Shown here in pieces: positions 3,443 to 23,697 of a DNA stretch of 64,000 bases. Position 1 is the first letter of the stretch. Each line of letters begins with the position of its first letter. Made by a program: the position numbers and the translations under genes. The notes under the pieces were generated by a model that saw only the letters and a list, made by a program, of their open reading frames with translations, ran no database searches and was not told the origin of the DNA. Origin of the DNA: a virus; IMG/VR virus record IMGVR_UViG_3300033475_000008, positions 1-64,000 of that record; one strand, given 5' to 3'.

Positions 3443-4429
3443 ATGCTGATCGTCCTAGAGGGTGTGGACAAGGGTGGTAAGACCTCAGTCGTCCGGGCCC
3501 TCAGTAAGCTCCACCTAAAGACCGGCAGGGGTCAGTTCACCTGCCTCCACCAGGGTCCACCGCCTGAGGGCGTGAATCTGGTGGAGCACTACGAGAGGCC
3601 GCTACTGCAGCCCGAGATGATCACGCGGTGCCTCAGCACTGAGGACCTGGTCGTGTTGGACCGGTGGCACGTCGGTGAGCTCGTGTATGGTCCGCTGCTT
3701 CGTGGTGGGTCCCGGCTCACGGAGGGTGCCGCCCTTCACGTGGAGCTGCTGTTGCAGTCACTGGGCGCGACTCAGGCCCTGGTGCAACCCTACGACGTGC
3801 AAGAGACCCTGAAGAGACACCGCCGGCAACCGGACCTGCTGCTCACGTCTCAGCAAGCCAGTGAGGTCGCGGAGTGGTACCGAGTCTATGCGGTGCACCG
3901 AGACAACTGGTACCAGTATGACAGTGGTGCAGCTTCGGCCACTGAACTCGCTCTCGAGCTACTGCAAGACTCGGCAGACTACACGAGAGAAGTACTCCCC
4001 GTCGCCACCGCTCACCCCTCTTACCTAGGTGACCCACAACCAGACGTGCTCTTGGTAGGTGACACTCGGTCCAACGGTGCTGACGCCTTGACCTGGACCA
4101 CGAAACCGTTCACCCCCGCAGCCACCCTGTCCAGCAGCACCTGGTTGATGGACGCTCTGGCAGCTGCCCCAGTCCCTCCCACTATGTTTGGCCTGGTCAA
4201 TGCCCGGGAGCCAGGGGTACAGTTGAGGAAGTTGTGGTCGGACCTGGGTGAGCCTCGTGTGGTCGCGTTGGGCAACGAGGCGGTCCGAGCCATGAAAGAG
4301 AACAAGCTCGAGTACACGAAGATGTGCCACCCGCAGTGGGCTCGTCGGTTCCGTCATAGTCACCGCGAGGACTACGCGAAGGCACTGAGAAGGGTGGTCG
4401 TCGATGGAGATCCAAACGGAGACTGGTGA
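3443..4429 (+). CDS. thymidylate-kinase-like dNMP kinase fused to a uracil-DNA-glycosylase-like domain
   Basis: N-term IVLEGVDKGGKTS P-loop and LDRW..E.VYG; C-term VLLVGD, PF, PRVVALGNEA and HP motifs of the UDG fold. Confidence 0.75.
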   Translation: MLIVLEGVDKGGKTSVVRALSKLHLKTGRGQFTCLHQGPPPEGVNLVEHYERPLLQPEMITRCLSTEDLVVLDRWHVGELVYGPLLRGGSRLTEGAALHVELLLQSLGATQALVQPYDVQETLKRHRRQPDLLLTSQQASEVAEWYRVYAVHRDNWYQYDSGAASATELALELLQDSADYTREVLPVATAHPSYLGDPQPDVLLVGDTRSNGADALTWTTKPFTPAATLSSSTWLMDALAAAPVPPTMFGLVNAREPGVQLRKLWSDLGEPRVVALGNEAVRAMKENKLEYTKMCHPQWARRFRHSHREDYAKALRRVVVDGDPNGDW

Positions 4430-5363
4430 CCAGGCGTACCGGGACCTGCTGACCAAGGTGCATGACCACGGTGAAGTGGTGTCACCGCGTGGATTCAAGA
4501 CGTGGGAGCTGCGACACGCCACCATCATCATCCGTGACCCGGTTCAGGCCCCACCGGTGAACCTGCGAAGCGGCTACAGTGAATACATCGCAGCCACGGA
4601 GTTGTGTCACCTTCTGGCGGGGGTGAGTCACCTGGGTCAACTGGACGCGGCCAGTCACGGTCGGTTCACCCAGTTTGCTGACGGTGGTCGGTTGCGAGGC
4701 GCGTACGGTCCTCGGCTCTTCAAGCAGCTCCTTCTCATCGAGGACAAGCTTCGGCGTGACCCGGACACCCGGCAAGCCGTGGCCACCATCTGGCGACCAG
4801 ATGAGTTGACCACTCGGGACACCCCGTGTACTCTCACCTTGACCTTCTCAGTGAGACACGGTCTCCTCGAGTTGAAGGTGCACATGCGGTCCAACGACCT
4901 CGTGCTGGGTGTGCCCTACGACTGGTTCATGTTCAGTCGCTTGCAACTGGCCATGGCCCAGGTACTGGGGGTGAGACCCGGGCCATACGTGCATCACGTG
5001 GACAGCCTGCACCTGTATGAGCGAGACGACGAGCGGGCCAGGACGATGGTGCACAACGCGATGCGAGGTGAGAGGGGTCACCGGGTCCTTCCCGCGTTCA
5101 CTCCCCTGAACCTCGCGTCTGGTGGCCTTGACGAAGCCTACACGACGTGGTCTCAGGTGCAGTCCGCGGCCACCGCGGTCTTGTGGCACCGCACCCCGGC
5201 CAACTGGTTCACGGATCGAGTGGAGCGCCTCACTGACGAGGAGGTAATCTGCGTGAGGTGCCAATACGTGGTGCCACGTAACCAGCTTCGTCGTTCCACC
5301 GACGACACCTTGGTAGGCCGGGCACCTGTCTGCTACGAGTGCTGGACCGAGAATGGCGAGTAG
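4404..5363 (+). CDS. thymidylate synthase homologue, probable dCMP hydroxymethylase-type
   Basis: GAYGPR, DPDTRQA, DTPCT (catalytic Cys), MRSND.LGVPYD (Asp at the dUMP/dCMP specificity site), SLHLYE. Confidence 0.8.
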   Translation: MEIQTETGDQAYRDLLTKVHDHGEVVSPRGFKTWELRHATIIIRDPVQAPPVNLRSGYSEYIAATELCHLLAGVSHLGQLDAASHGRFTQFADGGRLRGAYGPRLFKQLLLIEDKLRRDPDTRQAVATIWRPDELTTRDTPCTLTLTFSVRHGLLELKVHMRSNDLVLGVPYDWFMFSRLQLAMAQVLGVRPGPYVHHVDSLHLYERDDERARTMVHNAMRGERGHRVLPAFTPLNLASGGLDEAYTTWSQVQSAATAVLWHRTPANWFTDRVERLTDEEVICVRCQYVVPRNQLRRSTDDTLVGRAPVCYECWTENGE

Positions 5364-5835
5364 ACCCTCGTGGGACGAGGTATGGTTGTCACTGGCTGAC
5401 ACCATGGCCAAGCGGTCCCGGTGTCCCACGGGTGCCGGGGCAGTCATCGTGGACCAGAACCAGCGGGTCGTGTCCACCGGCTACTCAGGTCCACCAGCCG
5501 GGTACCAGTATGAGCGACGTGACCTCTACCCGAGCCACACCTGTGAGGTCTACTGCTTGAGGTCGCGTCGAGCCACGAGTGAGCGCGACTCTGCCTACCT
5601 GGACTGCCCGGCCTCGCACGCTGAGGCTAACGCGGTGGCCACCGGTGACCGGTCACGCATGGAGGGTGGCACTCTCTACGTGTCCTCAGTCCCGTGTTGG
5701 GGGTGTGCCAAGCTGCTGGCCAACTGTGGGGTGAGCCGTGTGGTGTGGCGCCAGGGAGCCGCAGACAGTTACCGGGACCCGCGTCAGGTGACAGAGTTTC
5801 TGAACCGATGTGGGCTGAAGGTGTGGTCGGTGTGA
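5353..5835 (+). CDS. dCMP deaminase
   Basis: RPSWDE, KRSRC, STGY, HAEANA and PCWGC zinc motifs. Confidence 0.9.
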   Translation: MASRPSWDEVWLSLADTMAKRSRCPTGAGAVIVDQNQRVVSTGYSGPPAGYQYERRDLYPSHTCEVYCLRSRRATSERDSAYLDCPASHAEANAVATGDRSRMEGGTLYVSSVPCWGCAKLLANCGVSRVVWRQGAADSYRDPRQVTEFLNRCGLKVWSV

Positions 5836-5907
5836 GTCACAGTTGGTAATGTATACAGTGGTGCTAGAGTGAGTGCCGTGAGGCTGTTGACGAGAGGTGA
5901 GTGAGTC

Positions 5908-6252
5908 ATGAGGCTCTTGAAGGATCACGAGATCTTGTCCCTGGTGAGAAAGCTGGAACCGGGGCTGGAGAAGGACAAGCGGTGGCGAGACGACGCCGCG
6001 TGCCTCACCCAGGACCCGGAACTGTTCTTCCCCATCGGGAACACGGGACCCGCGGTGCAGTGGGCCGAGGACGCGAAGGCGGTGTGCGACCTCTGCCCGG
6101 TGGAGGCCAAGTGCCTGGTGTGGTCCCTGCTGAAGGGGTACAACGACGGCGTGTGGGGCGGCCTGGACGAGAACGAGCGTCGGATCCAGCGTCGTCGGCT
6201 GAAGAGAGCTCAAGACGCCGAGCGAGGAGAAGCGAAGCTACGTGCCAGCTGA
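5908..6252 (+). CDS. whiB: WhiB-family transcription factor
   Basis: AAC..DPELFFP..AKAVC..CPV..C..GVWGGL.E.ER. Confidence 0.95.
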   Translation: MRLLKDHEILSLVRKLEPGLEKDKRWRDDAACLTQDPELFFPIGNTGPAVQWAEDAKAVCDLCPVEAKCLVWSLLKGYNDGVWGGLDENERRIQRRRLKRAQDAERGEAKLRAS

Positions 6253-8059
6253 GAGTCAAGCGATCGAGGTCGCTGGTGCCAGGTCACCGGCGGCCTCACC
6301 GCTGTCTAGCGTGTCACTGCACCTGGTCGAGTCCATGGAGGACCTGTTCGCGTTCAAGCGTTGGCTGGGTGAGCGGCGAGAGACCCCACTGGCAGTAGAC
6401 ACCGAGACAGGTGGCCTGGACCCGTGGAAGACGCGGCTGCGTCTGGTCCAGTTCGGCGACCCGAACACCGGGTGGGCGATCCCGTTTGAGGACTGGCAGG
6501 GAGCAGTGAAGGAGGTCATCCGCACCTACGAGGGCGGGTGGATCTGTCACAACCTTCCCTTCGAGCAGAAGTTCTTCCAGGTCCACGCGGGGGTGACCCT
6601 GCCCTGGGAGAAGTGCGATGACACGATGGTGCAATGCGCGTTGTTGGAGCCGCACAAGCCCAAGGGACTGAAGCCGGCTTCAGAGAGACACGTGGACCGC
6701 GCGGCAGCTCGTGGTCAAGAGGTCTTACACGACGCCATGAGAAAGCAGGGGTGGACCTGGGACACCATCCCTCACACCTTCCCACCCTACTGGATCTATG
6801 GTGCCCTGGACCCAGTGCTCACTGCCAGGTTGTGGCAGTGGGGAAAGCCCCTGGTCACCACGCAGTGCCCTGAGGCCTATGACCTAGAGATGGCAGTTCT
6901 TCGAGTATGCCATCACATGATGTTGAACGGGATGCTGCTGGACGTCCCCTACGTGGAAAGGTCCATCCAGGAACTCCGAGAGTTCAGCTCTCAGGCCAGG
7001 GAGTGGCTGCAACGGGTCCACGGGATCACCAGTCCCATGTCCAGTCTGCAGATCAGTCGAGCCATGACCGCGTTGGGCGTGGACGTGTTGGCCTACACTG
7101 ACGCCGGGTCTCCCAAGATGGACAAGGAGACTCTCACGGTCTACAAGGGGTGGGCCAAGGAGCCTAAGGCGCAGGAGCTAGCCAGCTACGTGTTGTCAGT
7201 GAGACACGCTGACAAGATGCTGGGCAGCTACCTGGAGAACTTCCTGGAGATGCGTGACCGGGATGACCTCATCCACTGCAGCATCAACACTCTGGCAGCC
7301 CGCACGGGTCGGATGTCCGTGACTGAACCAGCACTGCAGACTCTCCCGCGTGACGACAAGATCATCCGTGGGTCCTTCATCCCTCACCCAGACCGGGTCC
7401 TGGTCAGTTGTGACCTCAGCCAAGTTGAAGCCAGGCTCGCGGCACACTTCTCTCAAGACGGTGGCCTCATCGAGGCGTTCCGCCGAGCAGATGAGGACGG
7501 TGAAGACTTCTTCTGCGCCGTGGCTGGGCAGATCTTCAACGAGCCCATCAACAAGGCTGACCTGCGTCGACAGATGACCAAGAACGTCGTGTACTGCTCT
7601 CTGTACGGCGGCGGCGTGACTAAGATGGCACAGACCGCGGGGGTGCCACTGGTTCAGATGCAGCCCGTGAAGTCCGCGTTTGACGCGACCTACCCGGGTC
7701 TGCAGGGACTGATCCAGTCCATCACTGAGGTGGGACGCCGCACTGACCCACCCAGTATCCGCAGTCCACTGGGCCGCATGTTGGTCGCGGACCAGGGCCG
7801 GGAGTACACGCAACTGTGCAACGCCCTGATCCAGGGGCACGCCGCGGAGTACATGAAGCGGTGCGCCGTGGACATGGACGCCTCGGGACTGGGTGACTAC
7901 CTGCGTCTACTGATCCACGATGAGGCTATCTTGGAGGCACCGGTCAAGGAGGCAGAGGAGGTGCTTCACCTGGTGGAGCAGTGCATGACTGACCGGGAAC
8001 GCTACCTGGTCCCCCTGACCGCGGACGGCAAAGTGATGAGTGAGAGGTGGCAGAAGTGA
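6242..8059 (+). CDS. DNA polymerase family A with 3'-5' exonuclease
   Basis: ExoI DTETG, ExoII HN..FE, ExoIII YGALD; TGRMS; motif A DLSQVEAR; motif B R...K...Y...YG; motif C IHDE. Confidence 0.95.
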   Translation: MPAESQAIEVAGARSPAASPLSSVSLHLVESMEDLFAFKRWLGERRETPLAVDTETGGLDPWKTRLRLVQFGDPNTGWAIPFEDWQGAVKEVIRTYEGGWICHNLPFEQKFFQVHAGVTLPWEKCDDTMVQCALLEPHKPKGLKPASERHVDRAAARGQEVLHDAMRKQGWTWDTIPHTFPPYWIYGALDPVLTARLWQWGKPLVTTQCPEAYDLEMAVLRVCHHMMLNGMLLDVPYVERSIQELREFSSQAREWLQRVHGITSPMSSLQISRAMTALGVDVLAYTDAGSPKMDKETLTVYKGWAKEPKAQELASYVLSVRHADKMLGSYLENFLEMRDRDDLIHCSINTLAARTGRMSVTEPALQTLPRDDKIIRGSFIPHPDRVLVSCDLSQVEARLAAHFSQDGGLIEAFRRADEDGEDFFCAVAGQIFNEPINKADLRRQMTKNVVYCSLYGGGVTKMAQTAGVPLVQMQPVKSAFDATYPGLQGLIQSITEVGRRTDPPSIRSPLGRMLVADQGREYTQLCNALIQGHAAEYMKRCAVDMDASGLGDYLRLLIHDEAILEAPVKEAEEVLHLVEQCMTDRERYLVPLTADGKVMSERWQK

Positions 8060-8086
8060 CCACTCTCAAGCGTGAGGAGAAGAGAC

Positions 8087-8290
8087 GTGTCTCAGCAGTG
8101 CGACGTGTGTGACAAGCACCCCGTGTTCGGTAAGACCGTAGCTCGCCTGGGTCGAAACGCCACGCACCGAAAGGTGAAGGGTCGTTCACCTCGACAGTTC
8201 AAGCCCAACTTGCAGACGGTGCGGACCAAGGGCGTGACTCGTCGACGAGTGTGCACCTCGTGTCTCAAGGCCGGAAAGGCCACCCCGTGA
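8087..8290 (+). CDS. rpmB: 50S ribosomal protein bL28 homologue
   Basis: MSQQCDVCDKHPVFG...RQFKPNLQTVR...RRRVCTSCLKAGK; GAGGAG RBS before GTG 8087. Confidence 0.85.
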   Translation: MSQQCDVCDKHPVFGKTVARLGRNATHRKVKGRSPRQFKPNLQTVRTKGVTRRRVCTSCLKAGKATP

Positions 8291-8379
8291 CGTGGCCCGA
8301 CGTGGCAGAGACCCTGGTGGTCGGGACGATCGTCGTGTTTCTGATCGCGATCATCGCTACCAGGAAGGACAAGAAGTGA
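8287..8379 (+). CDS. small membrane peptide
   Basis: MTWPDVAETLVVGTIVVFLIAIIATRKDKK; GTGA overlap with rpmB. Confidence 0.5.
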   Translation: MTWPDVAETLVVGTIVVFLIAIIATRKDKK

Positions 8380-8446
8380 CTGACAGATCTCAAGTGATCA
8401 CCCTCTGCATGTGCGGGCGGCTGGCGGCCGCGCAGGAGAGGACGAT

Positions 8447-8623
8447 GTGGCGAGTCACCACACCAAGAAGCGTTGGAAGGGGCACTGCCCCATGTGCAAC
8501 TGGTACACCATCTATGGGACCGGGTTGTCTCAGCAACGCTCTGGGAGTGAGTTGAAGCGAGCGTTTGAGGGTAAGAAGCGTCGCGTGAAGAGGAATGACG
8601 TACCACGAGAAGAAGAATGGTGA
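8447..8623 (+). CDS. small basic CxxC protein
   Basis: MASHHTKKRWKGHCPMC...; GGAGAGG RBS. Confidence 0.5.
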   Translation: MASHHTKKRWKGHCPMCNWYTIYGTGLSQQRSGSELKRAFEGKKRRVKRNDVPREEEW

Positions 8624-8628
8624 GTGAC

Positions 8629-9651: not shown

Positions 9652-9698
9652 TCGTCACTGACTCACGGTGAGCCAGGGTCACTGACACGACGAGGAGA

Positions 9699-10082
9699 GT
9701 GAGAGTGATGAGGGCCTTGACCAAGCAGCTAAACCGGGAGCTGGGGATCCGGGTGGGCGTATACCACACGATCCGGTTGGAGTGCAGGCACCTTCCCAAG
9801 GTGGAGGTAGACTTCGAGTCACACGACGTGGGGTTCACTCAGGTGACCACCCTGCGTCAGGACGGGAAGGTCCTGGCACACTACCGACCAGGTACCGGTC
9901 ACTGGGACGTCGCACTTGAAGTCGCGACCAAGGTGTGCGCCAGGGCCTACGCGGCTCACCTGCACCGGGAGGGCCCTCTCACTCACGCGACCTTCTTCGC
10001 CGAGGTGGCCCACCAGGTAGAGAGGTTGAGCGGTGACTACCTGGCTGAGGGTCTCCCTGAGGCAGACCTAGACGAGGCATGA
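9699..10082 (+). CDS. hypothetical protein
   Basis: ORF with GAGGAG RBS. Confidence 0.6.
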   Translation: MRVMRALTKQLNRELGIRVGVYHTIRLECRHLPKVEVDFESHDVGFTQVTTLRQDGKVLAHYRPGTGHWDVALEVATKVCARAYAAHLHREGPLTHATFFAEVAHQVERLSGDYLAEGLPEADLDEA

Positions 10083-10112
10083 GTTTACATCTCACGCGTC
10101 AGTTGGTATGGT
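10083..10112 (+). promoter_or_regulatory. GTTTACA-type promoter
   Basis: TTTACA-17 nt-TATGGT. Confidence 0.65.
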
Positions 10113-10151
10113 CTACTCGTTACACCCAGATTGACTGAACTGAGGAGTGAT

Positions 10152-11078: not shown

Positions 11079-11087
11079 CCTACCAAG

Positions 11088-11119
11088 CAACGGGCAGTGC
11101 CTTCGGGTGCTGCTCGTTG
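11088..11119 (+). terminator. hairpin terminator
   Basis: CAACGGGCAG-TGCCTTCGGGTG-CTGCTCGTTG inverted repeat after the stop codon. Confidence 0.55.
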
Positions 11120-12072: not shown

Positions 12073-12073
12073 G

Positions 12074-13134: not shown

Positions 13135-13677
13135 ATGTACCCTGAGGTTGAGAACTACCTGAAGACCACGGAAAAGGTCGTCGTCGACTACACCGACGCG
13201 GTTCGAGCAGCACGGTCCGAGTTCGACCGGGACAAGTACCACCCCGGCTACAACAGCTATGACCAGGCGCACACGAGGTACGACGAGGCCGTGAAGAAGG
13301 CCATGGCGACTCGAAACGACGGTCTCAAGGTGATTCAAGCCTCACTCTTGAACCACCACGACGAGGTCGTGCAGTTCATCACTCGCACCTGCCTCCCCGG
13401 CTACCGCGACGAGGCTCACGCGATCCTGCGGGAGCTCCCGGCCACGTTCTCGCAGTTGCAAGCGATCGCGCGGTCACACGACTGGTGTGACGTGTGGGAC
13501 CGGTTCGTGGACCAGGCCATCGAGGAGGGAGTGCACCTGCAGGGTCTCACGCAGACCGACATTCTCACTCGGCAGCTGCTGCGGTGGGTCAAGATCGAGT
13601 TTGACTGGAGCTACGAGGACATCGACGAGTTGCAGAACCGCGTCGAGGCCGTCGTGCGGGCCGAGACCAAGCAATAG
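13135..13677 (+). CDS. hypothetical protein, MYPEVENY paralogue 1
   Basis: Paralogous to 13785..14360 (MYPEVENY, LPAT, DWCD). Confidence 0.85.
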   Translation: MYPEVENYLKTTEKVVVDYTDAVRAARSEFDRDKYHPGYNSYDQAHTRYDEAVKKAMATRNDGLKVIQASLLNHHDEVVQFITRTCLPGYRDEAHAILRELPATFSQLQAIARSHDWCDVWDRFVDQAIEEGVHLQGLTQTDILTRQLLRWVKIEFDWSYEDIDELQNRVEAVVRAETKQ

Positions 13678-13684
13678 AGTGAGT

Positions 13685-13747
13685 GCCCCTGACGCTGGGT
13701 GAGGGTCCAGTAGTGAGACGTGGGTTCGACTCCCACCAGGGGTACCA
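13685..13747 (+). ncRNA. mini tRNA-like RNA (acceptor, T arm, encoded CCA)
   Basis: GCCCCTG/CAGGGGT-A-CCA; GTGGG-TTCGACT-CCCAC; a single CTGG/CCAG hairpin replaces the D and anticodon arms. Confidence 0.65.
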
Positions 13748-13784
13748 GCCGGAAGTACCGGTGAGGTGAGATTGAGGAGATCTG

Positions 13785-14360
13785 ATGTATCCTGAGGTTG
13801 AGAACTACGCGACGGCCACGCAGGAAGCCGAGAGCGTGTACAACCAGATGGTCAACACCGCGCAGACCGAGTACTACGCCAGCACCTTCCGGGACCGTCG
13901 GGAGCTGCACGACGCCCGACTGACCATCGCTCGTCACGAGCGGCGCGTCGCCATCCAGGCGGCGTGGGACGGGCTGAAGATGAGCGAGGACAAGCTCGTC
14001 GTGTGGATCGCCGAGCACTGCCAGAGCCACTTCTCCTACGCCGTCCAGGTGCTGGAGATCCTGCCGGCGACCTCGGCCGAGATCCAGGCCCTGGCGTTGG
14101 AGAAGGACTGGTGTGACACCTTCGACACCCTGCTGGACCAGGCCGTCGAGGCCGGTGTCCTCGAGGACGCGTCGGGATCGGATCGACCCCGGAACGCTCT
14201 GACCCGCTGGTTCCGCAACAACATCAGCAGCAACCGTAACAACGTCGACCAGCTGCTGCAGTTCGTGGACCAGATCGTGGCCGCCGAGAAGGCGGCTCAG
14301 GCCGAGCAGGCCACCGACGAGACCGAGAAGGTCACCTCGGACACGGTCGAGGAGTCCTGA
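13785..14360 (+). CDS. hypothetical protein, MYPEVENY paralogue 2
   Basis: Paralogue of 13135..13677 with a near-identical RBS region. Confidence 0.85.
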   Translation: MYPEVENYATATQEAESVYNQMVNTAQTEYYASTFRDRRELHDARLTIARHERRVAIQAAWDGLKMSEDKLVVWIAEHCQSHFSYAVQVLEILPATSAEIQALALEKDWCDTFDTLLDQAVEAGVLEDASGSDRPRNALTRWFRNNISSNRNNVDQLLQFVDQIVAAEKAAQAEQATDETEKVTSDTVEES

Positions 14361-14397: not shown

Positions 14398-14469
14398 CTC
14401 ACCGTAGCTCAATGGACAGAGCGGTCACCTCCTAAGTGACGAGTGTGGGTTCGACTCCCACCGGTGAGA
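14398..14469 (+). tRNA. tRNA-Arg(CCT)
   Basis: Full cloverleaf; anticodon loop CT-CCT-AA. Confidence 0.9.
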
Positions 14470-14528
14470 CGCTGCCAACTTGTCCACATACGTGGTAGGC
14501 TGGCTTCAGAAGAGAGGAGATTGAGAGC

Positions 14529-16304
14529 GTGCCACACGCAGAGATCATCAGTGACCCCCTGCTCATCCAGGTGGATACTCACTTCAATGACCGACACCTG
14601 ATCAAGCAGGTGCCGGGTGCCGGGTACACGAAAGACACGGGGTGGCGAGTCCCCCTCTCGTGGCCCAGTTGCGTCATGTTGCGCGGCCTGTTCGGTGCCA
14701 ACCTCACCGTCGGGCCGCGTCTCGCGTCTTGGTCGCAGATTCTCATGAGTGACCGACTTCGCCCAGCTCTAGGGATTCGAAGCGCGTTGACTGTGGACGG
14801 CGCAGAGCTCACCGGTGAGATGGTCACGGCGCTGCAGCTCCTCGACGAGATCGAAGAGGACTCAGAGCTCAGACTCTACCCGTACCAGCGAGTAGACCTG
14901 GCTTTCCTGATCGCGAATCAGCGGTCTCTTCTGGTCAACGAGCCGGGTCTGGGCAAGACCGCGGTGGTGATCCGGTACCTGCAGGTGCTGGCTGCTCTGG
15001 GTGCCCCGGCGTTCCCGGCCGTGATCGTGTGCCCCAACAGTCTGAAGCACACGGTGTGGGCGCAGGAACTGGCACAGTGGGCACCCGAGCTGATGGTGTC
15101 CGTGGTGGACGGTGGCATGGCACAGCGTCGCAAGCAGTTGCTGCCCGGCTCTGACGTCTACGTCATCAACTATGACGCGATGCGTCTTCACTCTCGTCTG
15201 GCGTCCTACGGTCAGACGGAACTGAGCGCGGCGGACAAGAAGCTCAAGGAACTCAACGAGCTGGACGTGAAGACGTTCATCGCCGACGAGGTTCACCGTT
15301 GCAAGGACCCTCACGCCAAGCAGACCCTGGCCAGTTGGGCAGTGGCTCAGCAGTCCCAGTTCAGGGTGGGCATGACTGGCACCCCCGTGGCCAATCACCT
15401 GGGTGACCTGTGGTCACTGCTGCGTCTGGTGGAACCTGAGTGGTTCCGGGGCAAGACCAAGTTCGTGGACCGGTACGCGGTGCAGGACTTCAACTTCTAC
15501 GGTGGACAGACCATCCTCGGGATCAAGCCCGAGACACGCACCGAGTTGTTCCAGGTGATCGACCCGCTCATTCGTCGAGTACCCAAGAAGGCGGCTCTGC
15601 CGCAGCTTCCGGAGATGCTCCCGGTGCAGTACCGACACACTCCCATGACTCCCTCTCAAGCCAAGGCCTACCGGGAGATGGAGGCCTCACTGATCGCGGA
15701 CCTGAACCAGTTGCTCATGGCACCGGATCCTCTCAACCAGTTGACCAGGTTGCTGCAGTTCGCGTCCAGCTACGCCGAGGTCGACGACCTCAACCGGGTC
15801 CGACTCACCGCCCCCTCCAACAAGGTCAATGACCTGGTGGATCTGCTGGAGGAGATGGGTGACGCTCCCTTGGTGGTGGCAGCTGTGTCCAGGCAACTCG
15901 TGGAGATCGCCGCCGCGGAACTCATCAAGCGTAAGATCAGCTTGGGACTGGTGACCGGGTCTCAGTCACCGGTGGAGCGGCAGCTCGCGGTGAAGAGGTT
16001 CCAGGACGGCCACGATCGTGTGATCATGATGACCACGGGTGCCGGCGCCGAGGGGCTCACGCTCACTCGAGCTGACACCATGCTGTTCATGCAGTCACCG
16101 TGGTCGCTGATCCAGCGGAAGCAGGCCCAAGACCGGATCTACCGCATCGGTTCCGAGATCCACCAGTCGATCCGGATCATCGAGCAGATCACTCCCGGGA
16201 CCGTGGAGCAGCGCAAGCTGGACGTGTTGGCAGGTAAGGAACACCGACTCGAGGAGATCGTGCGTGACCGAGAGACCCTGGCCGCGTTGCTTGGGGTGAA
16301 GTGA
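14529..16304 (+). CDS. SNF2-family helicase
   Basis: LYPYQ, EPGLGKT, DEVH, TGTP, GAEGLTL, QAQDRIYRIG. Confidence 0.9.
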   Translation: MPHAEIISDPLLIQVDTHFNDRHLIKQVPGAGYTKDTGWRVPLSWPSCVMLRGLFGANLTVGPRLASWSQILMSDRLRPALGIRSALTVDGAELTGEMVTALQLLDEIEEDSELRLYPYQRVDLAFLIANQRSLLVNEPGLGKTAVVIRYLQVLAALGAPAFPAVIVCPNSLKHTVWAQELAQWAPELMVSVVDGGMAQRRKQLLPGSDVYVINYDAMRLHSRLASYGQTELSAADKKLKELNELDVKTFIADEVHRCKDPHAKQTLASWAVAQQSQFRVGMTGTPVANHLGDLWSLLRLVEPEWFRGKTKFVDRYAVQDFNFYGGQTILGIKPETRTELFQVIDPLIRRVPKKAALPQLPEMLPVQYRHTPMTPSQAKAYREMEASLIADLNQLLMAPDPLNQLTRLLQFASSYAEVDDLNRVRLTAPSNKVNDLVDLLEEMGDAPLVVAAVSRQLVEIAAAELIKRKISLGLVTGSQSPVERQLAVKRFQDGHDRVIMMTTGAGAEGLTLTRADTMLFMQSPWSLIQRKQAQDRIYRIGSEIHQSIRIIEQITPGTVEQRKLDVLAGKEHRLEEIVRDRETLAALLGVK

Positions 16305-16576
16305 GTCGGCGGATCGAGCGCTTGCAGTTGGCAGGGGACCTGTCTCGGGTCCCCTGTCCACGGTGTAATAGGTTCACTCTGTGGGTGGTGACTCGAGGCA
16401 CCATGTACTCTCTTCTGTGCTCTGATCGTGGTCACTGCGCCTACGAGCTTCCCATCCAGAACAACAAGTCGAAGGGAACCCAGGGTGCGAGTGTCAAACA
16501 GCGTTCTCCGCACGTTCAAGACGTGTCGGCGCAAGTGGTACCTGGCGACGTACCGGCAGCTGACGCTCCGTTCTGA
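16301..16576 (+). CDS. small zinc-ribbon protein
   Basis: CPRC...CSDRGHC; GTGA overlap with the helicase. Confidence 0.5.
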   Translation: MSRRIERLQLAGDLSRVPCPRCNRFTLWVVTRGTMYSLLCSDRGHCAYELPIQNNKSKGTQGASVKQRSPHVQDVSAQVVPGDVPAADAPF

Positions 16577-17441
16577 GAGCCACCCGGCGACTGCCTCAAA
16601 TCTCCTCGGCACCCGCGTTCATACTGCCCTGGAGGCACATTACGGCTACGGGGTCGACCCTCTCCTGGCACTGAGTGCCTCCTACGAGGCTGCCAGGGAG
16701 AGACACGGCGACGCCTGGCACGAGCTCAACGGTGAGCAGTCCTACGCTGAGGTCATGGTCAAGGGCTTCCTGGAGTACGTGGCCTCGACCGGCTTTGACG
16801 AAGAATACGTGCCAGTCGCGGTGGAGCGGATCCTGTCCTACCCGATGGAGGGTGACTGGGGTGGAGAAGAGATCACTCTCACCGCTAAGCTGGACCAGGT
16901 GCTTCGTCGAGTCAGTGACGGTGCCTTGATGGTTCGGGACTTCAAGACCGTGGGGTCACTGGCTAAGGCTGACAACCTGCGCCTGGATGAGCAGATGAGG
17001 TTCTATGACCTGCTTCTGGCACTCAGTCTCGAGGGCACGAGTGACCGCGCTGGTGGGGCCGTGTACACCATGCTTCTGCGGTCTAAGCGCACCATCAAGG
17101 CCACCCCGCCCTTCTACCAGCAGGTGGTCATCACCTACAGTGACGAGGAACGCGCCAGCATGACTCGCCGCGTCAACGGTGAGATCACGGACCTGCTTCG
17201 AGTCAAGCGTTCACTGGACGAGGGAGCTGACCACCGAGAGGTCGCGTACCCTACTCCTGGTGACTACTGCAACTGGGGTTGCCCGTTCAAGCAGGTGTGC
17301 CCCATGTTTGATGACGGCTCGAGGGTAGAAGCAGCTCTGGAAGACCTCTACGTGCAAGCTGACCCGTGGGCCTACTACGGTGACGGTGGTCTCAACGAAG
17401 TCCTGGACAGGGTACCTCTGACCAGGCAAGACGTGATATAG
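16428..17441 (+). CDS. PD-(D/E)XK RecB/Cas4-like exonuclease
   Basis: SNS...FKTCRRKW, GT.VH.ALE, E, KLD, DFKT, Q...Y, C..CPF...C; start may lie further downstream. Confidence 0.85.
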   Translation: MVTAPTSFPSRTTSRREPRVRVSNSVLRTFKTCRRKWYLATYRQLTLRSESHPATASNLLGTRVHTALEAHYGYGVDPLLALSASYEAARERHGDAWHELNGEQSYAEVMVKGFLEYVASTGFDEEYVPVAVERILSYPMEGDWGGEEITLTAKLDQVLRRVSDGALMVRDFKTVGSLAKADNLRLDEQMRFYDLLLALSLEGTSDRAGGAVYTMLLRSKRTIKATPPFYQQVVITYSDEERASMTRRVNGEITDLLRVKRSLDEGADHREVAYPTPGDYCNWGCPFKQVCPMFDDGSRVEAALEDLYVQADPWAYYGDGGLNEVLDRVPLTRQDVI

Positions 17442-17474
17442 TGGACCAGCTACAGCGAGTGAGGAGAATGACCG

Positions 17475-18203
17475 ATGCCCAAGGGCGTTGATTTTTTGAT
17501 CTTCGGTGAGTACAAGCTTGGCAAGTCCTTCCTGGGAAGCACCGCTCCCAAGCCCATCGTCGTGATCGACGTGGAAGACGGGTCTAGCTTCACCCCGGTT
17601 CGACACGTCGTGTGGGATCCCCGGAACACACCACCCCAGTACGACGGTACCTGGGACGTGGCCATCGTCCACGCCAAGACCTTCAATGACGTGAAGCTGG
17701 TGCAGCAGTGGCTCACCAGTGGGCGTCACCCCTTCCAGTCCGCGGTCCTGGACTCCATCTCTCGGATCCAGCAGCTGGCCATCGAGGAGATCGCGAACGG
17801 TCGCAAGATGGAGCAGCAGGACTGGGGCGAGCTCCTTCGTCAGTTCACCAACATGATCAACGAACTGAAGAACCTCAAGACCCACCCGACCAAGCCGCTG
17901 GACTCGCTGGTCGTGATCGCTATGGCCAAGGAAGGTCACAACGGCAAGTTGCGTCCACTCGTTCAGGGACAGCTCAGTGAGTTCCTGCCTTACATGTTCG
18001 ACGTCGTAGCGTGTCTCGACCTCGCGGTCAACGAGCATGGTGAGGCAGTGCGACGACTCTACGTGGACCCGCACCCCAACTACGTAACAGGACAGCGAGT
18101 CGCTGGAGCTCTTGGTCCGTGGGTAGACAACGCGTCCATCGAGAAGATGGTACAGACGGTCCGAGAGTACCTGGACCGCGTCAACCAGCAGCAGCACTCT
18201 TGA
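17475..18203 (+). CDS. AAA-family ATPase (Sak4-like recombination protein)
   Basis: LIFGEYKLGKS Walker A, D.E.G, VLDSIS; sits between a nuclease and an SSB. Confidence 0.8.
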   Translation: MPKGVDFLIFGEYKLGKSFLGSTAPKPIVVIDVEDGSSFTPVRHVVWDPRNTPPQYDGTWDVAIVHAKTFNDVKLVQQWLTSGRHPFQSAVLDSISRIQQLAIEEIANGRKMEQQDWGELLRQFTNMINELKNLKTHPTKPLDSLVVIAMAKEGHNGKLRPLVQGQLSEFLPYMFDVVACLDLAVNEHGEAVRRLYVDPHPNYVTGQRVAGALGPWVDNASIEKMVQTVREYLDRVNQQQHS

Positions 18204-18237
18204 CATATCTGAACACAAGTAGACACAGAGGCACACC

Positions 18238-18846
18238 GTGGCAGAGTTCAACTGGGCAGACCTGGCGGCAGCGGCAGCAGAGGCAGGGTTCGGTGGTCCC
18301 ATCCCCAACGGTTCCTACCGACTGAGGGTATCGAAGGCCGAGGTCACCAAGACCAAGGACAACAGCAAGCAGAAGATCGCTGTTCAGTTCAAGGTGATGG
18401 AGGGACCCCACGCCGGGACCGTCCTCTTCAACGACTTCGTGATCAGTCCGGAGAACCCGAAGGCCCTGGGCTACTTCTTCCGAGACATGAAGACCCTCGG
18501 TTTCGGTGACGACTACTTCGCCACCAACCCGCCACTGGCTCGCGTGGCCGGTGAGATGGTGGATCGAGAGGTGACCGGCCTCGTCGGTACTCGGGAGTGG
18601 CAGGGTCAGGAGAAGAACGAGATCCAGCGGATCCGCCCCGTGACAGGTGCGGTGACCACTGCTTCTCTGCCTCAATCAGCTCCGATGGCTCCGATGGCTC
18701 CTCCCATGGCTCCGGTAGCGCCTCAGCAGGTTCCCAGCCAGCCTGCCGTCCCGATGACTCAGGTCGCCAGTGAGACACCCACCGTCCCTCAGCCCGCTAC
18801 TCCTCAGCCTACCAACGACGCACCGCCGATCATGCCGTCATTTTGA
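18238..18846 (+). CDS. DUF669-like single-stranded DNA-binding protein
   Basis: PIPNGSY...V.EGPHAG..LF; Pro-rich tail ending in F. Confidence 0.75.
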   Translation: MAEFNWADLAAAAAEAGFGGPIPNGSYRLRVSKAEVTKTKDNSKQKIAVQFKVMEGPHAGTVLFNDFVISPENPKALGYFFRDMKTLGFGDDYFATNPPLARVAGEMVDREVTGLVGTREWQGQEKNEIQRIRPVTGAVTTASLPQSAPMAPMAPPMAPVAPQQVPSQPAVPMTQVASETPTVPQPATPQPTNDAPPIMPSF

Positions 18847-18866
18847 TCAGATGAGAGAAGAGTGAG

Positions 18867-19433
18867 ATGCAGTACGTGAACGAGCACGGCCACACCCGGG
18901 GACTTCCCTGGCTCTACGAGCAGGAGAAGTATCAGCAGGAGACCTACGGGGTGGACTTCACGGAGTTCGACGATGACCCCGACAAGCTCACTGCCTACAC
19001 CACCATGAACCTCAACGCGGCCTTCCTGGAGCTCGCGGAGGCTCAGGCTGAGACTCCGTGGAAGCCGTGGGCCCAGGTGGATAAGGACGAGGTGTGGAAC
19101 CGAAACCGGGACCGCTTCGTCGGCGAGGTCGTAGACGTGCTCTTCTTCCTGGCCAACGCCCTGGTCGCGGTAGGGTGCACGGACCAAGAGCTGGCTGAGC
19201 GTTACGCCGAGAAGATGACCATCAATCGCAACCGGCAAGTTGACGGCTACGACGGGTTCAGCAGTAAGTGCCCGTCATGTCACCGGGCTCTGGATGAGGG
19301 TGACCAAGAGAAGCAGGTGACCTTCGGGGTGACTGTCTACTGCTCTGAGGACTGCTTCACCGGTAGCGTGGAGACCGAGACCGTCGTGGCTCTAGACGAC
19401 GACGGTGGAGACCTGCAGGCGGTGGCAGCGTGA
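18867..19433 (+). CDS. all-alpha NTP pyrophosphatase (dimeric dUTPase/dCTPase-like) with C-terminal Zn motif
   Basis: ELAE...PWKPW...EVVDVLFF...Y.EK..IN..RQ; CPSC...YCSEDC. Confidence 0.8.
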   Translation: MQYVNEHGHTRGLPWLYEQEKYQQETYGVDFTEFDDDPDKLTAYTTMNLNAAFLELAEAQAETPWKPWAQVDKDEVWNRNRDRFVGEVVDVLFFLANALVAVGCTDQELAERYAEKMTINRNRQVDGYDGFSSKCPSCHRALDEGDQEKQVTFGVTVYCSEDCFTGSVETETVVALDDDGGDLQAVAA

Positions 19434-20464
19434 GAATCCTCGTCACAGGTACCACCAAGCAACAGATCGGTGGCGGCACTCAACTGGGTTACGAGCCAGT
19501 CGCTGACCTGTTCGTGAAGGGGCTCAGGTTCAACCCCGAGTGGCAGGTGGAGCACCGGCTCGCGGAGATCGGTGAGGTCATCACTGACTACGACGCGGTC
19601 TTCGTCGGCCTGGTGCCGCCCCTGTCCATCGCGTCGCATTACCTCTACGCGGCGCTGAACACGATCCACCAGTGCGAGACCCAGGGAATCCCACTGATAC
19701 TCTACGTGGATGACTGGGCGTTCCCCAGCATGATCGGGAAGCTCAAGACCGCGGTGAAGAACCCGGAGCACCTGACCAAGCCGTTCTTCGAGCGTCGGTA
19801 CGGTCACGAGTGGGCCGTAGTGCATCGGGACCTGCTGGTCGGTGTCTTGGAGCGTCTGCTGGAGCAGACGTGGCCGCCCACGGTGATCCCTGCCTTCACG
19901 TGGGGTGACCACCAGGTACTGCAGGATCGACTTCCCATGGTCCAGCGGGCGGTGTTCGTGGACCCGAGTCTGTTTGCTCGCGGCTACGCCGTTCACCCGG
20001 TACCACCTGAGGACAAGCAGCGTCAGTGGGTGTTGGGCACGGTGTCAGACCAGCGGACGTGGCTCGGGAAGCAGCAACTGGGTTGGGACGTCCGCTACAT
20101 CGGGTCTCGTTCCAGCAAGGCCACGGAGAAGATGCAGGAACAGGACTTGGTGGCGCTGTACGCGAAGAGTTGGGGGGTGCTCAGTCCACCCTACAAGCAG
20201 ATCCTCGGCACCGGCTGGTGGCGGAACCGCTTCGTGTACACCTCCTGGATGAGGTCCATCCTGTTCTGTGACCCAGGTGAGGCACCGCAGCTCGGTGGGG
20301 CCTTCCAGCTCAACCCACTGGAGGTCAGTGAGATGAGCGTTCGCGACCTGGCCAACGTCGCTGACTGGCAGTGGCGAGAGCAGGCGCAGCGGATGATGTC
20401 ACGTGATCGGGTTCACCAGACTCTCCGCGACGCTATCACGGCCTCGATGGAGCGAGTCGCGTGA
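19430..20464 (+). CDS. GT-B type glycosyltransferase, putative DNA base glycosyltransferase
   Basis: MRILVTG start, YDAVFVG, YVDDW, LY.KSWGVL.PPY, GWWRNRF; translationally coupled between the dNTPase and UGM. Confidence 0.6.
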   Translation: MRILVTGTTKQQIGGGTQLGYEPVADLFVKGLRFNPEWQVEHRLAEIGEVITDYDAVFVGLVPPLSIASHYLYAALNTIHQCETQGIPLILYVDDWAFPSMIGKLKTAVKNPEHLTKPFFERRYGHEWAVVHRDLLVGVLERLLEQTWPPTVIPAFTWGDHQVLQDRLPMVQRAVFVDPSLFARGYAVHPVPPEDKQRQWVLGTVSDQRTWLGKQQLGWDVRYIGSRSSKATEKMQEQDLVALYAKSWGVLSPPYKQILGTGWWRNRFVYTSWMRSILFCDPGEAPQLGGAFQLNPLEVSEMSVRDLANVADWQWREQAQRMMSRDRVHQTLRDAITASMERVA

Positions 20465-21579
20465 CGCAGCAAACGTGCGTGGTCGTAGGCGCCGGGTTGA
20501 CCGGCGCCTGCGCCGCGTGGTGGCTGAACCAACACGGGTGGCACGTCGAGGTTCATGAGGCTACTCACCAGGTGGGTGGCAACTTGCGGGTAGCCTACCT
20601 CAACGGCGTGCCCTATGAGCCACACGGTCCCCACATCTTTCACACCAGTAGCCGCGAGGCTTACACGGTGATGCGTGATCACTCCCACCTGAACAACTAC
20701 AAGCACCACGTACTCACGCAGCTCCCAGACGGTCGTCACCTCACGTGGCCCCTGCAACTTGAGGAGCTTCAAGCTCTCCCTGAGTGGCCCAAGATCGCAG
20801 CTGAGCTGGACGCTCTCTCTGGGAAGCCAGAGGGAAACAACTTTGAGGCCTACGCGGTCAGTCTGATGGGTCGCACCCTCTATGAGTGGTGCTGTGAGGG
20901 ATACACGTGGAAGCAGTGGGGTCAGGACCCGAAGACCCTGGCTGCGTCTTTCGCTCCAAAGCGCCTGGACCTGCGTAGCGACGGTCGACGCGAGATGTTC
21001 CGGAACACGTGGGAAGGCTACAACACGCAGGGATGGCACGTTACCGTGAACCACCTCCTCCGTGGGATCACGGTCTACACAGACTCACCACTCACCTTGA
21101 GCACGTTGCCAGCCGCTGACGCCTACGTGGTCACTGCCCCCCTGGATCAGTTCCTGGAGGTGGACCAAGAACTACCGTGGCGCGGAGTCCGAACCGTGGC
21201 TGAGTACGTCCCCACCAACGGTGGCTTCCACTTGCCGGCACCCGTGGTGAACCGCCCTGACCAGGACGTCCAGTTCACCCGACAGGTGGAGACCAGTCAG
21301 ATGGCGTGGCACGACGCAGATCCACGTGACGTTCGCAGTGTCGGTGGTACGGTGGTGTGCACGGAGTACCCAGGTGAACCCGTGAAGCACTACCCGGTGG
21401 ATGACGTGGACGGGCGCAACCGGCATGATCACCGCACCCTGGTGACCATGTTGAGGATGCTAGAACCGCGAGCCGTGTTGGCTGGCAGGCTCGCGAATTA
21501 TGTATACATTGACATGGACCAAGCGATCATGCAGGGTCTCAACGCGGCCCGGCAGATCCTCCGGGGGACCAGAGAGTAG
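20461..21579 (+). CDS. glf: UDP-galactopyranose mutase
   Basis: VVGAGLTG FAD motif, E....GGN, HGPHIFHT, GYT.KQWG, EYP, YYP-like HYP, GRLA.Y.YIDMDQAI. Confidence 0.9.
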   Translation: MTQQTCVVVGAGLTGACAAWWLNQHGWHVEVHEATHQVGGNLRVAYLNGVPYEPHGPHIFHTSSREAYTVMRDHSHLNNYKHHVLTQLPDGRHLTWPLQLEELQALPEWPKIAAELDALSGKPEGNNFEAYAVSLMGRTLYEWCCEGYTWKQWGQDPKTLAASFAPKRLDLRSDGRREMFRNTWEGYNTQGWHVTVNHLLRGITVYTDSPLTLSTLPAADAYVVTAPLDQFLEVDQELPWRGVRTVAEYVPTNGGFHLPAPVVNRPDQDVQFTRQVETSQMAWHDADPRDVRSVGGTVVCTEYPGEPVKHYPVDDVDGRNRHDHRTLVTMLRMLEPRAVLAGRLANYVYIDMDQAIMQGLNAARQILRGTRE

Positions 21580-23697
21580 GTGCGTATGGGGTGGAACCCG
21601 ATGAAGGTGGACCTGTCAGATCTCACCGGTCTGCAGGCACCACTGCGAGCAGTGGACGTGCACGGTTTCGGTGGTGGCTTCACCGCCGGAGCCGTGCGCG
21701 CTGGCTTTCAGCTGGTGGGAAAGCGGGAAGGACCAGGTGGATTCGGGGTCTCCCTCTTCGAGGCTAACCGGGCCCTACTCGGTGACCAGTGGAAGGCTCA
21801 GGCCTGCGACGCCAAGGAGTGGGAACCGGTCGCCGCTGACGTGGTGATCGGTACCCCGCCTTGCACCGCGTTCAGCAACATGTCAGCCGGGTTCAGTGAT
21901 CGCGGTGCTGACGCGGCCATCAACCACTGCATGTGGGACCTCATCCGCTACGCCGCCAAGGTCAAGCCAGGCGTAGTGGTCATGGAATCTGTGGCTGGTG
22001 CCTACACGAAGGGTCTTCCTCTCATGGAGGCCCTCAGAGTGGAACTATGTGAGCGGTCTGGTCTCATGTACCGAGCCACTCACGTGTTGCAGAACAACCT
22101 CAGTCTGGGTGGCTGCACCAACCGGAAACGCTACTTCTTGGTGCTCAGTCAGGTACCATTCGGGGTAGAGTCCGCGAACCTGCACTGGTTGCCGACTGTG
22201 GGTGACGCGATCAGTGACCTCAGCGACCTGCAACTGGGCTGGGAGAGCCAGCACGTGGACGCGGCACCCACCTGGTGGTCTGCCAGTATGCGCACCGCCG
22301 ATCACACCGTGGACGGTCACCAGACACCTCGATCCAACCACGGTGACCGGCTCACGGACCTGGTGACCCCACCTGACGGGGTGAGCTGGGAACCGGGTGA
22401 CCGGGTGGCTGACGTGTTGCAACGCTACTACGCTCAACACGAGCGCCTCCCAGAGTCCTGGCGCTACCAGTTCAAGGGACGTCGTGACAAGTCACTGCCT
22501 CCGATCACGCGAGAAGAGCAGTTGGTCACACGCGGCATGGACCCAGGTGGGTTTGGACAGACCCGGTACTGGCCGTGGGACCAACCAGGTAGTGTGATCA
22601 ACGGTGCGGGTCCACACATGATCTGGCACCCCAGCAACCGCATCGCGACGCATCGCGAGGTGGCTCGACTCATGGGCTTCCCAGACGAGTGGCGAGTCGG
22701 TTCTGCCGCTGAGGACAAGCAGCTTCACATGTTCTGGGGTAAGGGCACGTCAGTGCACCCAGCGTGGTGGATCATGACCTGGGCGCGAGAGTCACTGCTG
22801 GGTCACCCGGGTGAGAAGGTCGGGGACGAACTTCCTGACGGTAGTCGACTCGTGGACGTGTCAGGAGACTGGCGTCCCGTGGCTCGGAAGCAGTGGGGCC
22901 AGGAAGTGGAGACGGAGGGCGTTACTCGAGAGAAGAAGACACGCGGGATCCGACAGAGTCGCGGTCCTCGAGTTCCACGAGTGCGGCCCGCTGTGCCAGA
23001 GGGCTTCCAGATGCGGGAGAGCGACCACTACTGCGTGGACGAGGTCTTCGTGCGTCGAGTGTACAGGCAGCTCAAGCTCTCGTCTGTGGACATTGTCCTG
23101 GACCTAGGCGCCCACGTTGGCGCGTTCACACGGTGGGCGAGAGACCAGGGAGCAGGTGCCGTGCACGCCGTGGAGATGATGCCAGAGACCCTGGAGTACC
23201 TGGTCAAGAACACCGAGAGTGACGAACGCGTTCACGTGCTCCACGGTGCGGTCAGCGGTCAAGAGTGTGACCAGGACGGTATGGTGCAGGCTGTACTACA
23301 CTCTCGTGGCAACCCGATGGGTGCCTTCGTGAACGGGACCCGGAAGACCCTCGGTGAGGGGATCAAGGCTCAGGCGTACCGCGTGGTAGAGGTACCGGCT
23401 ATCAGCATGTTGGCACTGCTGCACGAGATCCACCCCACGATCATCAAGTTCGACATCGAGACCAGTGAGTACGACGTGATCACACCCTGGGCGAGCACCA
23501 TCCGAGGTTACGGCGTCAAGCAGCTCATCGGCGAGCATCACGTGATGACACCTGAGCTGGTGCAAAAGGCGCAGGAGCTGCACGCGTCACTGGTAGCCCA
23601 GGGCTACGTGGCCAGTCGACCAGCTCCGACGGTCCCCAGCAACTGGGGAACAGTGATCTACTACACGCTCCCCGACGACGAAACGCCTGATCAGTGA
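21580..23697 (+). CDS. divergent DNA cytosine-C5 methyltransferase fused to a FkbM-family methyltransferase
   Basis: N-part DVHGFGGG, GTPPCTAFS, VMESV, RKRYF, REVARLMGFPD; C-part VLDLGAHVGAF, AVE, IIKFDIE.SE. Confidence 0.8.
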   Translation: MRMGWNPMKVDLSDLTGLQAPLRAVDVHGFGGGFTAGAVRAGFQLVGKREGPGGFGVSLFEANRALLGDQWKAQACDAKEWEPVAADVVIGTPPCTAFSNMSAGFSDRGADAAINHCMWDLIRYAAKVKPGVVVMESVAGAYTKGLPLMEALRVELCERSGLMYRATHVLQNNLSLGGCTNRKRYFLVLSQVPFGVESANLHWLPTVGDAISDLSDLQLGWESQHVDAAPTWWSASMRTADHTVDGHQTPRSNHGDRLTDLVTPPDGVSWEPGDRVADVLQRYYAQHERLPESWRYQFKGRRDKSLPPITREEQLVTRGMDPGGFGQTRYWPWDQPGSVINGAGPHMIWHPSNRIATHREVARLMGFPDEWRVGSAAEDKQLHMFWGKGTSVHPAWWIMTWARESLLGHPGEKVGDELPDGSRLVDVSGDWRPVARKQWGQEVETEGVTREKKTRGIRQSRGPRVPRVRPAVPEGFQMRESDHYCVDEVFVRRVYRQLKLSSVDIVLDLGAHVGAFTRWARDQGAGAVHAVEMMPETLEYLVKNTESDERVHVLHGAVSGQECDQDGMVQAVLHSRGNPMGAFVNGTRKTLGEGIKAQAYRVVEVPAISMLALLHEIHPTIIKFDIETSEYDVITPWASTIRGYGVKQLIGEHHVMTPELVQKAQELHASLVAQGYVASRPAPTVPSNWGTVIYYTLPDDETPDQ

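Follow-up and report, generated by a model that had tools for sequence, protein, structure and literature searches.

The window analysed here, a stretch of 64,000 nucleotides, raises the question of whether the phage from which it comes replaces the cytosine of its DNA with a glycosylated derivative and, if so, which sugar that derivative carries. It is the first 64 kb of the IMG/VR virus record IMGVR_UViG_3300033475_000008, which comprises 91,440 bases at an estimated completeness of 89%. The question arises from locus 1 (3443-5835), with a nucleotide kinase, a thymidylate synthase (TS) homologue and a dCMP deaminase, and from locus 2 (18867-23697), with an NTP pyrophosphatase (NTPase), a glycosyltransferase (GT), a UDP-galactopyranose mutase (UGM) and a fusion of a C5-cytosine-methyltransferase-like (C5-MTase-like) domain with an FkbM-family domain. 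The original prediction read these genes as a pathway in which 5-hydroxymethylcytosine (hmC) is made as a nucleotide before replication, dCTP is removed, and a furanose, possibly O-methylated, is added to the base in DNA.

All open reading frames (ORFs) named in that prediction were found at their positions on the plus strand. The enzyme assignments were borne out, by family matches for the TS homologue, the dCMP deaminase, the NTPase, the UGM and the C5-MTase-FkbM protein, and by fold for the GT, a GT-B enzyme. The interpretation built on them was partly supported. Glycosyl-hmC DNA is the likely outcome of the pathway; the full statement, in which the sugar is galactofuranose (Galf) and the product galactofuranosyl-hmC, is tentative, with doubt slightly outweighing confidence. 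What appears to be new here, judging from the genes, is a T4-type glycosyl-hmC pathway in actinophages, probably with galactofuranose.

The identity of the modified base was approached through the TS homologue (4404-5363; Thymidylat_synt in Pfam, 1.7e-22), which carries a dCMP hydroxymethylase signature and a C-terminal CxxC...CxxC tail. According to Lee et al. (2026, PMC13326640), N177D marks a cytosine substrate, an acidic residue at position 143 marks a hydroxymethyl rather than a methyl product, and D169N marks the flavin-dependent 5-hydroxycytosine synthases. In an alignment with E. coli ThyA, T4 gp42 and SPO1 gp29, residues D139, C142, D165 and D173 of the homologue corresponded to L143, C146, D169 and N177, and this four-residue pattern was identical to that of T4 gp42. 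The catalytic cysteine was kept, C142 in DTPC aligning with E. coli C146. Position 143 was occupied by Asp (D139), as in T4 gp42, SPO1 gp29 and MilA, and position 177 by Asp (D173 in GVPYD), as in T4 gp42, while Asn occupies it in SPO1 gp29 as well as in E. coli ThyA. Position 169 was D165 in MRSND, so that the D169N exchange diagnostic of 5-hydroxy-dCMP synthases (RB69 gp48, DLP3 gp80, RL38J1 gp216) was not found. The best match in the PDB was the CMP (cytidylate) hydroxymethylase MilA (1.5e-19). The predicted product is 5-hydroxymethyl-dCMP, because D169 is kept. A dUMP/5-hydroxymethyluracil (base-J-like) reading, prompted by the high tblastn rank of SPO1-type enzymes, was ruled out, since the SPO1 dUMP hydroxymethylase keeps Asn at position 177, where the window homologue has Asp.

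The remaining enzymes of a pre-replicative route to hmC, as originally predicted, were likewise present. The kinase gene (3443-4429) encodes a two-domain fusion: a thymidylate-kinase-like (TMPK-like) dNMP kinase occupies residues 1 to about 185, and a UDG-fold domain, whose motifs are altered to VGDxR[SN] and HPQ[WY], covers about 185-325. The dCMP deaminase (5353-5835; Pfam 1.4e-16, PHROG 2e-34) has intact zinc motifs, HAE and PCWGC (PCxxC). Genes of locus 1 overlap by 26 and 11 nt. In locus 2, the NTPase (18867-19433; PF08761/dUTPase_2), a protein of 188 residues with a C-terminal CxxC...CxxxC tail, is an all-alpha NTP pyrophosphatase related to T4 gp56 and a candidate dCTPase/dUTPase. It matched PF08761 with 29.9 bits against a cut-off of 22.9 and the PHROG dUTPase family at 1.9e-25, and BLASTP aligned it with T4 gp56 at 30% identity over 79 residues (E 2e-7) spanning the ExxD helix. 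Its metal motifs ExxE ... ExxD are present; a phmmer search of the NTPase against PDB sequences gave no significant match. The tails of the TS homologue (window 5200-5360) and the gp56-like NTPase (19270-19400) are zinc-ribbon-like, CVRC...CYEC and CPSC...CSEDC, respectively, and may serve for docking within a complex of nucleotide-synthesis enzymes.

The glycosylation step was assigned to the GT (19430-20464, 344 residues), a member of an unnamed phage family without a match in Pfam, NCBIfam or the named PHROG families. An AlphaFold model built from 46 of its 54 metagenomic homologues reached a mean pLDDT of 96.4 and showed the GT-B fold of two Rossmann domains at the size of T4 beta-glucosyltransferase (BGT). 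BGT was the top structural match of the model, about 2 Z units above transferases that do not act on DNA, and T4 alpha-glucosyltransferase (AGT) also scored high. At the sequence level no relationship was detected, since hhalign of the 46-sequence GT profile against T4 BGT returned a probability of 0.4%. For this reason the GT is predicted from its model to work like BGT, and membership of CAZy GT63 is not claimed. Its predicted role is that of an hmC-DNA glycosyltransferase, on the grounds of fold and co-occurrence. The tight coupling first noted for locus 2 was confirmed: 4-nt overlaps join the NTPase and GT genes (19430-19433) and the GT and mutase genes (20461-20464), and 0 to 6 nt separate the mutase and methyltransferase genes. 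A megablast search of locus 2 against the phage collection gave no match.

Co-occurrence was evaluated by scanning IMG/VR with the GT family, which yielded 23 loci, and metagenomes with the methyltransferase fusion, which yielded 7 more. Common to these loci was a block containing the kinase, TS, dCMP deaminase, PolA, SNF2 helicase and PD-(D/E)XK nuclease genes, continuing with AAA_24, DUF669, GT, in some cases the mutase and a second GT paralogue, NTPase and the C5-MTase-like gene. The arrangement is not due to chance, because it recurs in all three sources: the 23 IMG/VR loci, the 7 metagenome loci and the Actinomycetia phage DSL-LC01. In 15 of 15 loci with sufficient upstream sequence the GT lay inside the replication/nucleotide module and a TS homologue was present, in most of them with the same four diagnostic residues.

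The association was also found at greater distances. The cultured Gordonia phage Sixama, whose GT homologue is about 26% identical, encodes an Asp-type TS located 20 kb from the GT, together with a kinase, a dCMP deaminase, GT homologues, a MazG-like NTPase, a DNA methylase and WhiB. A siphovirus from Manatee Spring (L042, MW202657; 56 kb, P22-type coat) carries a GT homologue, an NTP pyrophosphatase, an Asp-type 'pyrimidine hmase' and a dCMP deaminase. The association of GT, hmC and C5-MTase genes therefore recurs outside the actinophage clade. These genomes provide good genomic evidence for a GT family that is predicted to act on hmC in DNA. The Manatee Spring phage (L042 19887-20939, 29702-31523 and 38635-39744) is unrelated to the window phage; its gene set also includes a HaeIII-like C5 methylase and a second gene for DNA polymerase.

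From families and residue signatures, the following order of steps is proposed. The gp56-like pyrophosphatase would convert dCTP (and dUTP) to the monophosphate, the Asp-type TS homologue would convert dCMP to 5-hydroxymethyl-dCMP, and the TMPK-like kinase followed by the host NDP kinase would yield hm-dCTP. The family A DNA polymerase with 3'-5' exonuclease (6242-8059, plus strand; DNA_pol_A 5e-51) would incorporate hm-dCTP and must then accept the modified dNTP, and the dCMP deaminase would supply dUMP for dTMP synthesis, as does T4 Cd. After replication, the BGT-like GT-B enzyme would glycosylate the hydroxymethyl group on DNA, a step suggested by fold and co-occurrence. Its donor would come from the mutase, converting UDP-galactopyranose to UDP-galactofuranose (UDP-Galf), as translational coupling and the presence of a sole recognisable phage transferase suggest.

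The mutase gene (20461-21579; GLF 9e-20) encodes a divergent UGM, the predicted source of UDP-Galf. It matched PF03275 with 71.6 bits (cut-off 26.3) and NAD_binding_8, the N-terminal FAD-binding Rossmann motif, with 47 bits, and it aligned end to end with the UGM of M. tuberculosis (E 2e-28). The motifs HIFHTS, GYTWKQW, RLDLR, FTR, YP and GRLANYVYIDM were retained, corresponding to FHTS, GYTxKQW, RLxxR, TR, YP and GRLxxYxYxDM, which we take to be the active-site motifs of solved UGMs; one Tyr of the YEG motif is replaced by Trp. Identity within the clade was 45-70%, similar to that of core genes, and did not exceed 30% to other phage UGMs. The mutase forms a phage-specific divergent lineage and appears to be an old member of the module rather than a recent capture, because its divergence within the clade is similar to that of the core genes.

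The last gene of locus 2 (21580-23697; PF00145 and PF05050) encodes a C5-MTase-like domain (to about 22914), a basic linker and an FkbM-family methyltransferase domain (about 22987-23694). The first domain matched PF00145 at 1.2e-14 (54.9 bits, cut-off 22), and the second matched PF05050 at 1.4e-7 (32.3 bits, cut-off 22.7) and TIGR01444 at 4e-12 (46.7 bits, cut-off 37.7). The C5-MTase motifs TPPC (motif IV Pro-Cys), MESV (VI Glu), NRKRY (VIII RxR), and THREVARLMGFPD and WGKGTSV (IX, X) were retained. Motif I reads DVHGFGGGF, compared with DLFAGIGGI in E. coli Dcm, the first Phe being replaced by His and the central Gly by Phe throughout the high-GC branch of the clade. In the FkbM half, the motifs VLDLGAHVGxFT and IKFDIExSEY are conserved. 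Both domains of the 705-residue ORF recur in three other proteins at 51-85% identity with the motifs kept in both halves, which identifies the predicted fusion as real and conserved; one relative (L029) has the identical gene order dUTPase-GT-mutase-fusion. In three others (L009, L010 and L011) the FkbM domain has an ORF of its own, which follows the C5-MTase-like gene immediately and in a different frame (in L009, 11906-13177 followed by about 13177-13848).

For the FkbM domain, phmmer against PDB sequences gave no significant match, and tblastn against cultured phages returned a single unrelated cyanophage match. A search for a TET/JBP dioxygenase (PF12851, E 0.1) over the 91-kb record, with its estimated completeness of 89%, gave no match. 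A 170-residue SAM methyltransferase of DSL-LC01, considered as a partner of the module, was dropped, as it is not conserved in other relatives.

Several observations weigh against parts of the pathway, and most concern the sugar. The mutase matched TIGR00031 over its full length with only 119.9 bits against an equivalog cut-off of 303.75, and its substrate may differ. No GLF match was found anywhere in three relatives with a completeness rating of 100%, all of which retain the genes for the GT, the TS, the kinase and the C5-MTase-like protein, so the mutase is accessory and dispensable, and its presence on the GT tree requires at least four changes. GT1, the orthologue of the window GT, was about 80% identical among five genomes with or without the mutase, which equals the rate of the core genes; the donor of the GT is therefore seemingly independent of the phage mutase, which argues against the furanose step as stated and still fits it if actinobacterial hosts supply UDP-Galf. 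In relatives with two GTs, moreover, the mutase, when present, lies between GT1 and the fast-evolving GT2, possibly its true partner, and GT2 was only 38-47% identical among the same five genomes. These patterns of occurrence and divergence would fit a glycosyl-hmC in which an ordinary host hexose (glucose or galactopyranose) is base-proximal and the mutase serves an unrecognised second transferase or host wall metabolism, a reading that we consider unlikely but of real weight. Against it stand the single GT, translationally coupled to the mutase, in the window genome, L029 and L006, the lack of any further transferase gene in a Glycos_transf_1/2 search of the record, and the 56-70% identity of the mutase within its sub-lineage, which places it under selection. 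By established enzymology, moreover, where the host has a mutase of its own, an extra one cannot shift the equilibrium between UDP-Galp and UDP-Galf. The GC content of the locus did not separate relatives with the mutase from those without it. Two readings fit these data: GT1 may always use UDP-Galf, which the host can supply and whose pool the phage mutase boosts, or it may use a common hexose while the mutase serves GT2 or another enzyme. For the lineage of the window the former is favoured, since a single recognisable transferase is present, with its stop codon overlapped by the start of the mutase gene. The furanose claim of the original prediction was thus weakened: its coupled mutase with UGM motifs stood, while the dependence of the GT on that mutase became doubtful. 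Likewise, of the co-occurrence expected in related phages, the strict association of the GT with Asp-type TS homologues held, and that with UGM failed in the three complete relatives. These cases come partly from related, syntenic phages and are not fully independent, and the pathway as a whole is predicted from the genes of the window phage and its relatives.

The same genomes bear on whether the sugar is placed on DNA at all and on what becomes of it. Actinobacterial walls contain Galf, and some mycobacteriophages and actinophages glycosylate their virions and carry GT and methyltransferase genes, so the GT and mutase could modify virion proteins or remodel the Galf of the host wall, with FkbM O-methylating that glycan; as leads only, sugar O-methyltransferases occur among the relatives of FkbM, as does a viral cluster of GT1-FkbM fusions. 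This is very improbable, given that the nearest solved structures to the GT are the two T4 DNA glucosyltransferases, that in three genome architectures the GT is invariably accompanied by a kinase, an NTPase and a TS homologue of the Asp type, that it lies within the replication module, at a great distance from the opposite-strand structural genes at about 31-64 kb, and that FkbM is fused to a DNA-methyltransferase fold instead of a structural or wall enzyme. A DNA-directed GT, as first predicted, is accordingly the position retained. The C5-MTase-like partner is harder to place: it is a conserved member of the module whose role the pathway leaves unexplained, and its intact catalytic Cys sits badly with a complete replacement of cytosine. 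Fully hmC-substituted DNA would offer it no obvious substrate, which leaves partial replacement or some other activity of the enzyme as explanations. It might act with FkbM on hmC or glycosyl-hmC, by base flipping for O-methylation or by covalent C6 exchange of the 5-methylene substituent, and so lead to an end product beyond sugar-hmC. C5-MTases can act on 5hmC in vitro, the gene occurs in every relative whose sequence reaches that far and, together with the module, in the Manatee Spring phage and Sixama, four proteins (down to 51% identity) have FkbM fused to it and L009-L011 have FkbM adjacent, and its motif I is H-G-F-G-G in place of the F-A-G-I-G of Dcm; all its other motifs, however, fit an ordinary methyltransferase on residual cytosines, and FkbM is absent from most relatives and so not essential to the module, which leaves this outcome quite improbable. 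A specific form of it, which we hold to be improbable, is that the C5-MTase-like domain does not methylate cytosine but extrudes the base, hmC or glycosyl-hmC, from the helix and so presents it to FkbM; the result would be a DNA-linked sugar bearing an O-methyl group, or else a cytosine with a 5-methoxymethyl or other substituent. O-methylation of the sugar would be compatible with the known roles of FkbM proteins by family-level analogy (RfbT-like enzymes, GT-fused viral clusters) and is rather unlikely. Because FkbM stays beside the C5-MTase-like gene in L009 and L011, which are complete genomes without the mutase, it is tied to that gene and not to the furanose step. The predicted sugar O-methylation therefore retains its FkbM domain, present and fused, loses its link to the mutase, and is speculative. 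Finally, the TS homologue could make another base (5-methyl-dCMP or 5-hydroxy-dCMP), or replacement could be partial, in which case the acceptor would not be hmC; the TS residue rules are correlative, the C5-MTase-like gene fits DNA that still contains cytosine, and the NTPase could be a plain dUTPase. With L143D speaking against a methyl product, the kept D169 against a 5-hydroxycytosine synthase, and a cytidylate hydroxymethylase as best PDB relative, we regard this as the most improbable of the alternatives, and hmC is retained as the predicted acceptor.

The second GT paralogue was recorded at L001 17441-18430 and in L008, L013-L014, L016-L023, L025, L027 and L028, where its identity to GT1 is 22-24%. 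No other gene of the block evolves nearly as fast, and the divergence of this paralogue looks like arms-race diversification of an outer sugar.

When compared with known systems, the predicted pathway most resembles the glucosyl-hmC pathway of T4, with which it shares the logical steps and superfamilies (gp56, gp42, gp1, Cd and the alpha- and beta-glucosyltransferases). It differs in several components: no relationship of the GT to BGT could be detected by sequence, a TMPK-like kinase with a fused UDG-fold domain takes the place of a gp1-like one, the replisome is that of an actinophage (PolA, SNF2 helicase, Cas4-like nuclease), and the gene set has two additions, the UDP-galactopyranose mutase and the C5-MTase-like-FkbM protein.

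The statement that no galactofuranosyl DNA base had been characterised is partly outdated. In Rhizobium phage RL38J1 and the Pootjesviridae, galactose is base-proximal on 5-hydroxycytosine, a UGM is encoded, and UDP-Galf is the proposed donor (Lee et al., NAR 2026, PMC13326640). Those phages resemble the present one in placing a UGM beside DNA GTs, a TS homologue and a TMPK-like kinase. Their acceptor, however, is 5-hydroxycytosine, the product of a flavin-dependent TS homologue with the D169N exchange, whereas the window homologue keeps D169, predicting 5-hydroxymethylcytosine; they are T4-like Rhizobium myoviruses, and their UGMs are at most 30% identical to the window mutase.

BGT-like GT-B enzymes that glycosylate 5hmC in DNA were described by Pyle, Lund, O'Toole and Saleh (bioRxiv 10.1101/2023.12.21.572611), who found phage GT-B enzymes mainly with thymidylate synthase homologues and mention no mutase, furanose or O-methylation. 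The clusters tested there need a C5-MT and a TET-like dioxygenase, whereas the window record has no Tet_JBP match.

Among sequenced phages, Actinomycetia phage DSL-LC01 (OQ999401) carries the same syntenic block, including GT-UGM, and differs by a second GT paralogue and the lack of an FkbM domain. Gordonia phages Sixama, Forza, GMA2, GodonK and Phendrix are cultured relatives with the core module; the organism names given for tblastn matches to the mutase did not include these phages. A literature search on hmC or glycosylated DNA in actinophages or Gordonia phages found no relevant report, and the DSL-LC01 paper is silent on the module. With the core module in cultured Gordonia phages, most of the claim is cheaply testable.

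If confirmed, T4-type cytosine replacement and DNA glycosylation would reach a broad clade of siphoviruses that infect actinobacteria, whose habitats range from freshwater to soil and whose GC contents range from 45% to 68%, and a furanose hexose would join the known DNA glycans. Base flipping for FkbM atop galactofuranosyl-hmC, if true, would be DNA base chemistry without precedent. The pathway is relevant to phage evasion of restriction and CRISPR, to bias in virome sequencing and cloning, and to enzyme tools for 5hmC labelling. Two components are under-explained: the family of BGT-like GTs, which has no name, and the C5-MTase-like protein, a conserved partner to which the FkbM domain is an optional addition.

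As for the source, the window has a GC content of 62%, a WhiB gene at 5983-6183, 40 tRNA genes spanning 14398-28820, and tail and structural genes on the minus strand from about 31 kb to 64 kb. From the WhiB gene, the tRNA genes and the minus-strand structural genes, the source is an uncultured, lytic-looking actinobacterial phage. Thirty-nine of the tRNA genes form an array (window 23805-28820) that begins 108 bases past the methyltransferase gene, and one extra tRNA-Arg lies upstream (14398-14470); Gordonia phage Sixama has a similar array next to its GT genes.

Some further genes were noted. A 492-residue protein at window 1096-2574 has classical C2H2 zinc-finger matches (PF00096, 4e-10), which is unusual in a phage. 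Among the tail genes, a Kelch-repeat protein (window 31534-33849, minus strand) and a pectate-lyase-like (RHGA/epimerase) protein (35054-37093, minus strand) are probably receptor-binding or depolymerase proteins. Beyond the window, an ADP-ribosylglycohydrolase (PF03747, 8.6e-63; L037 7965-8972, genome 70965-71972) adjoins a LuxR/sigma-70 region 4 protein and may be a counter-defence or regulatory gene.

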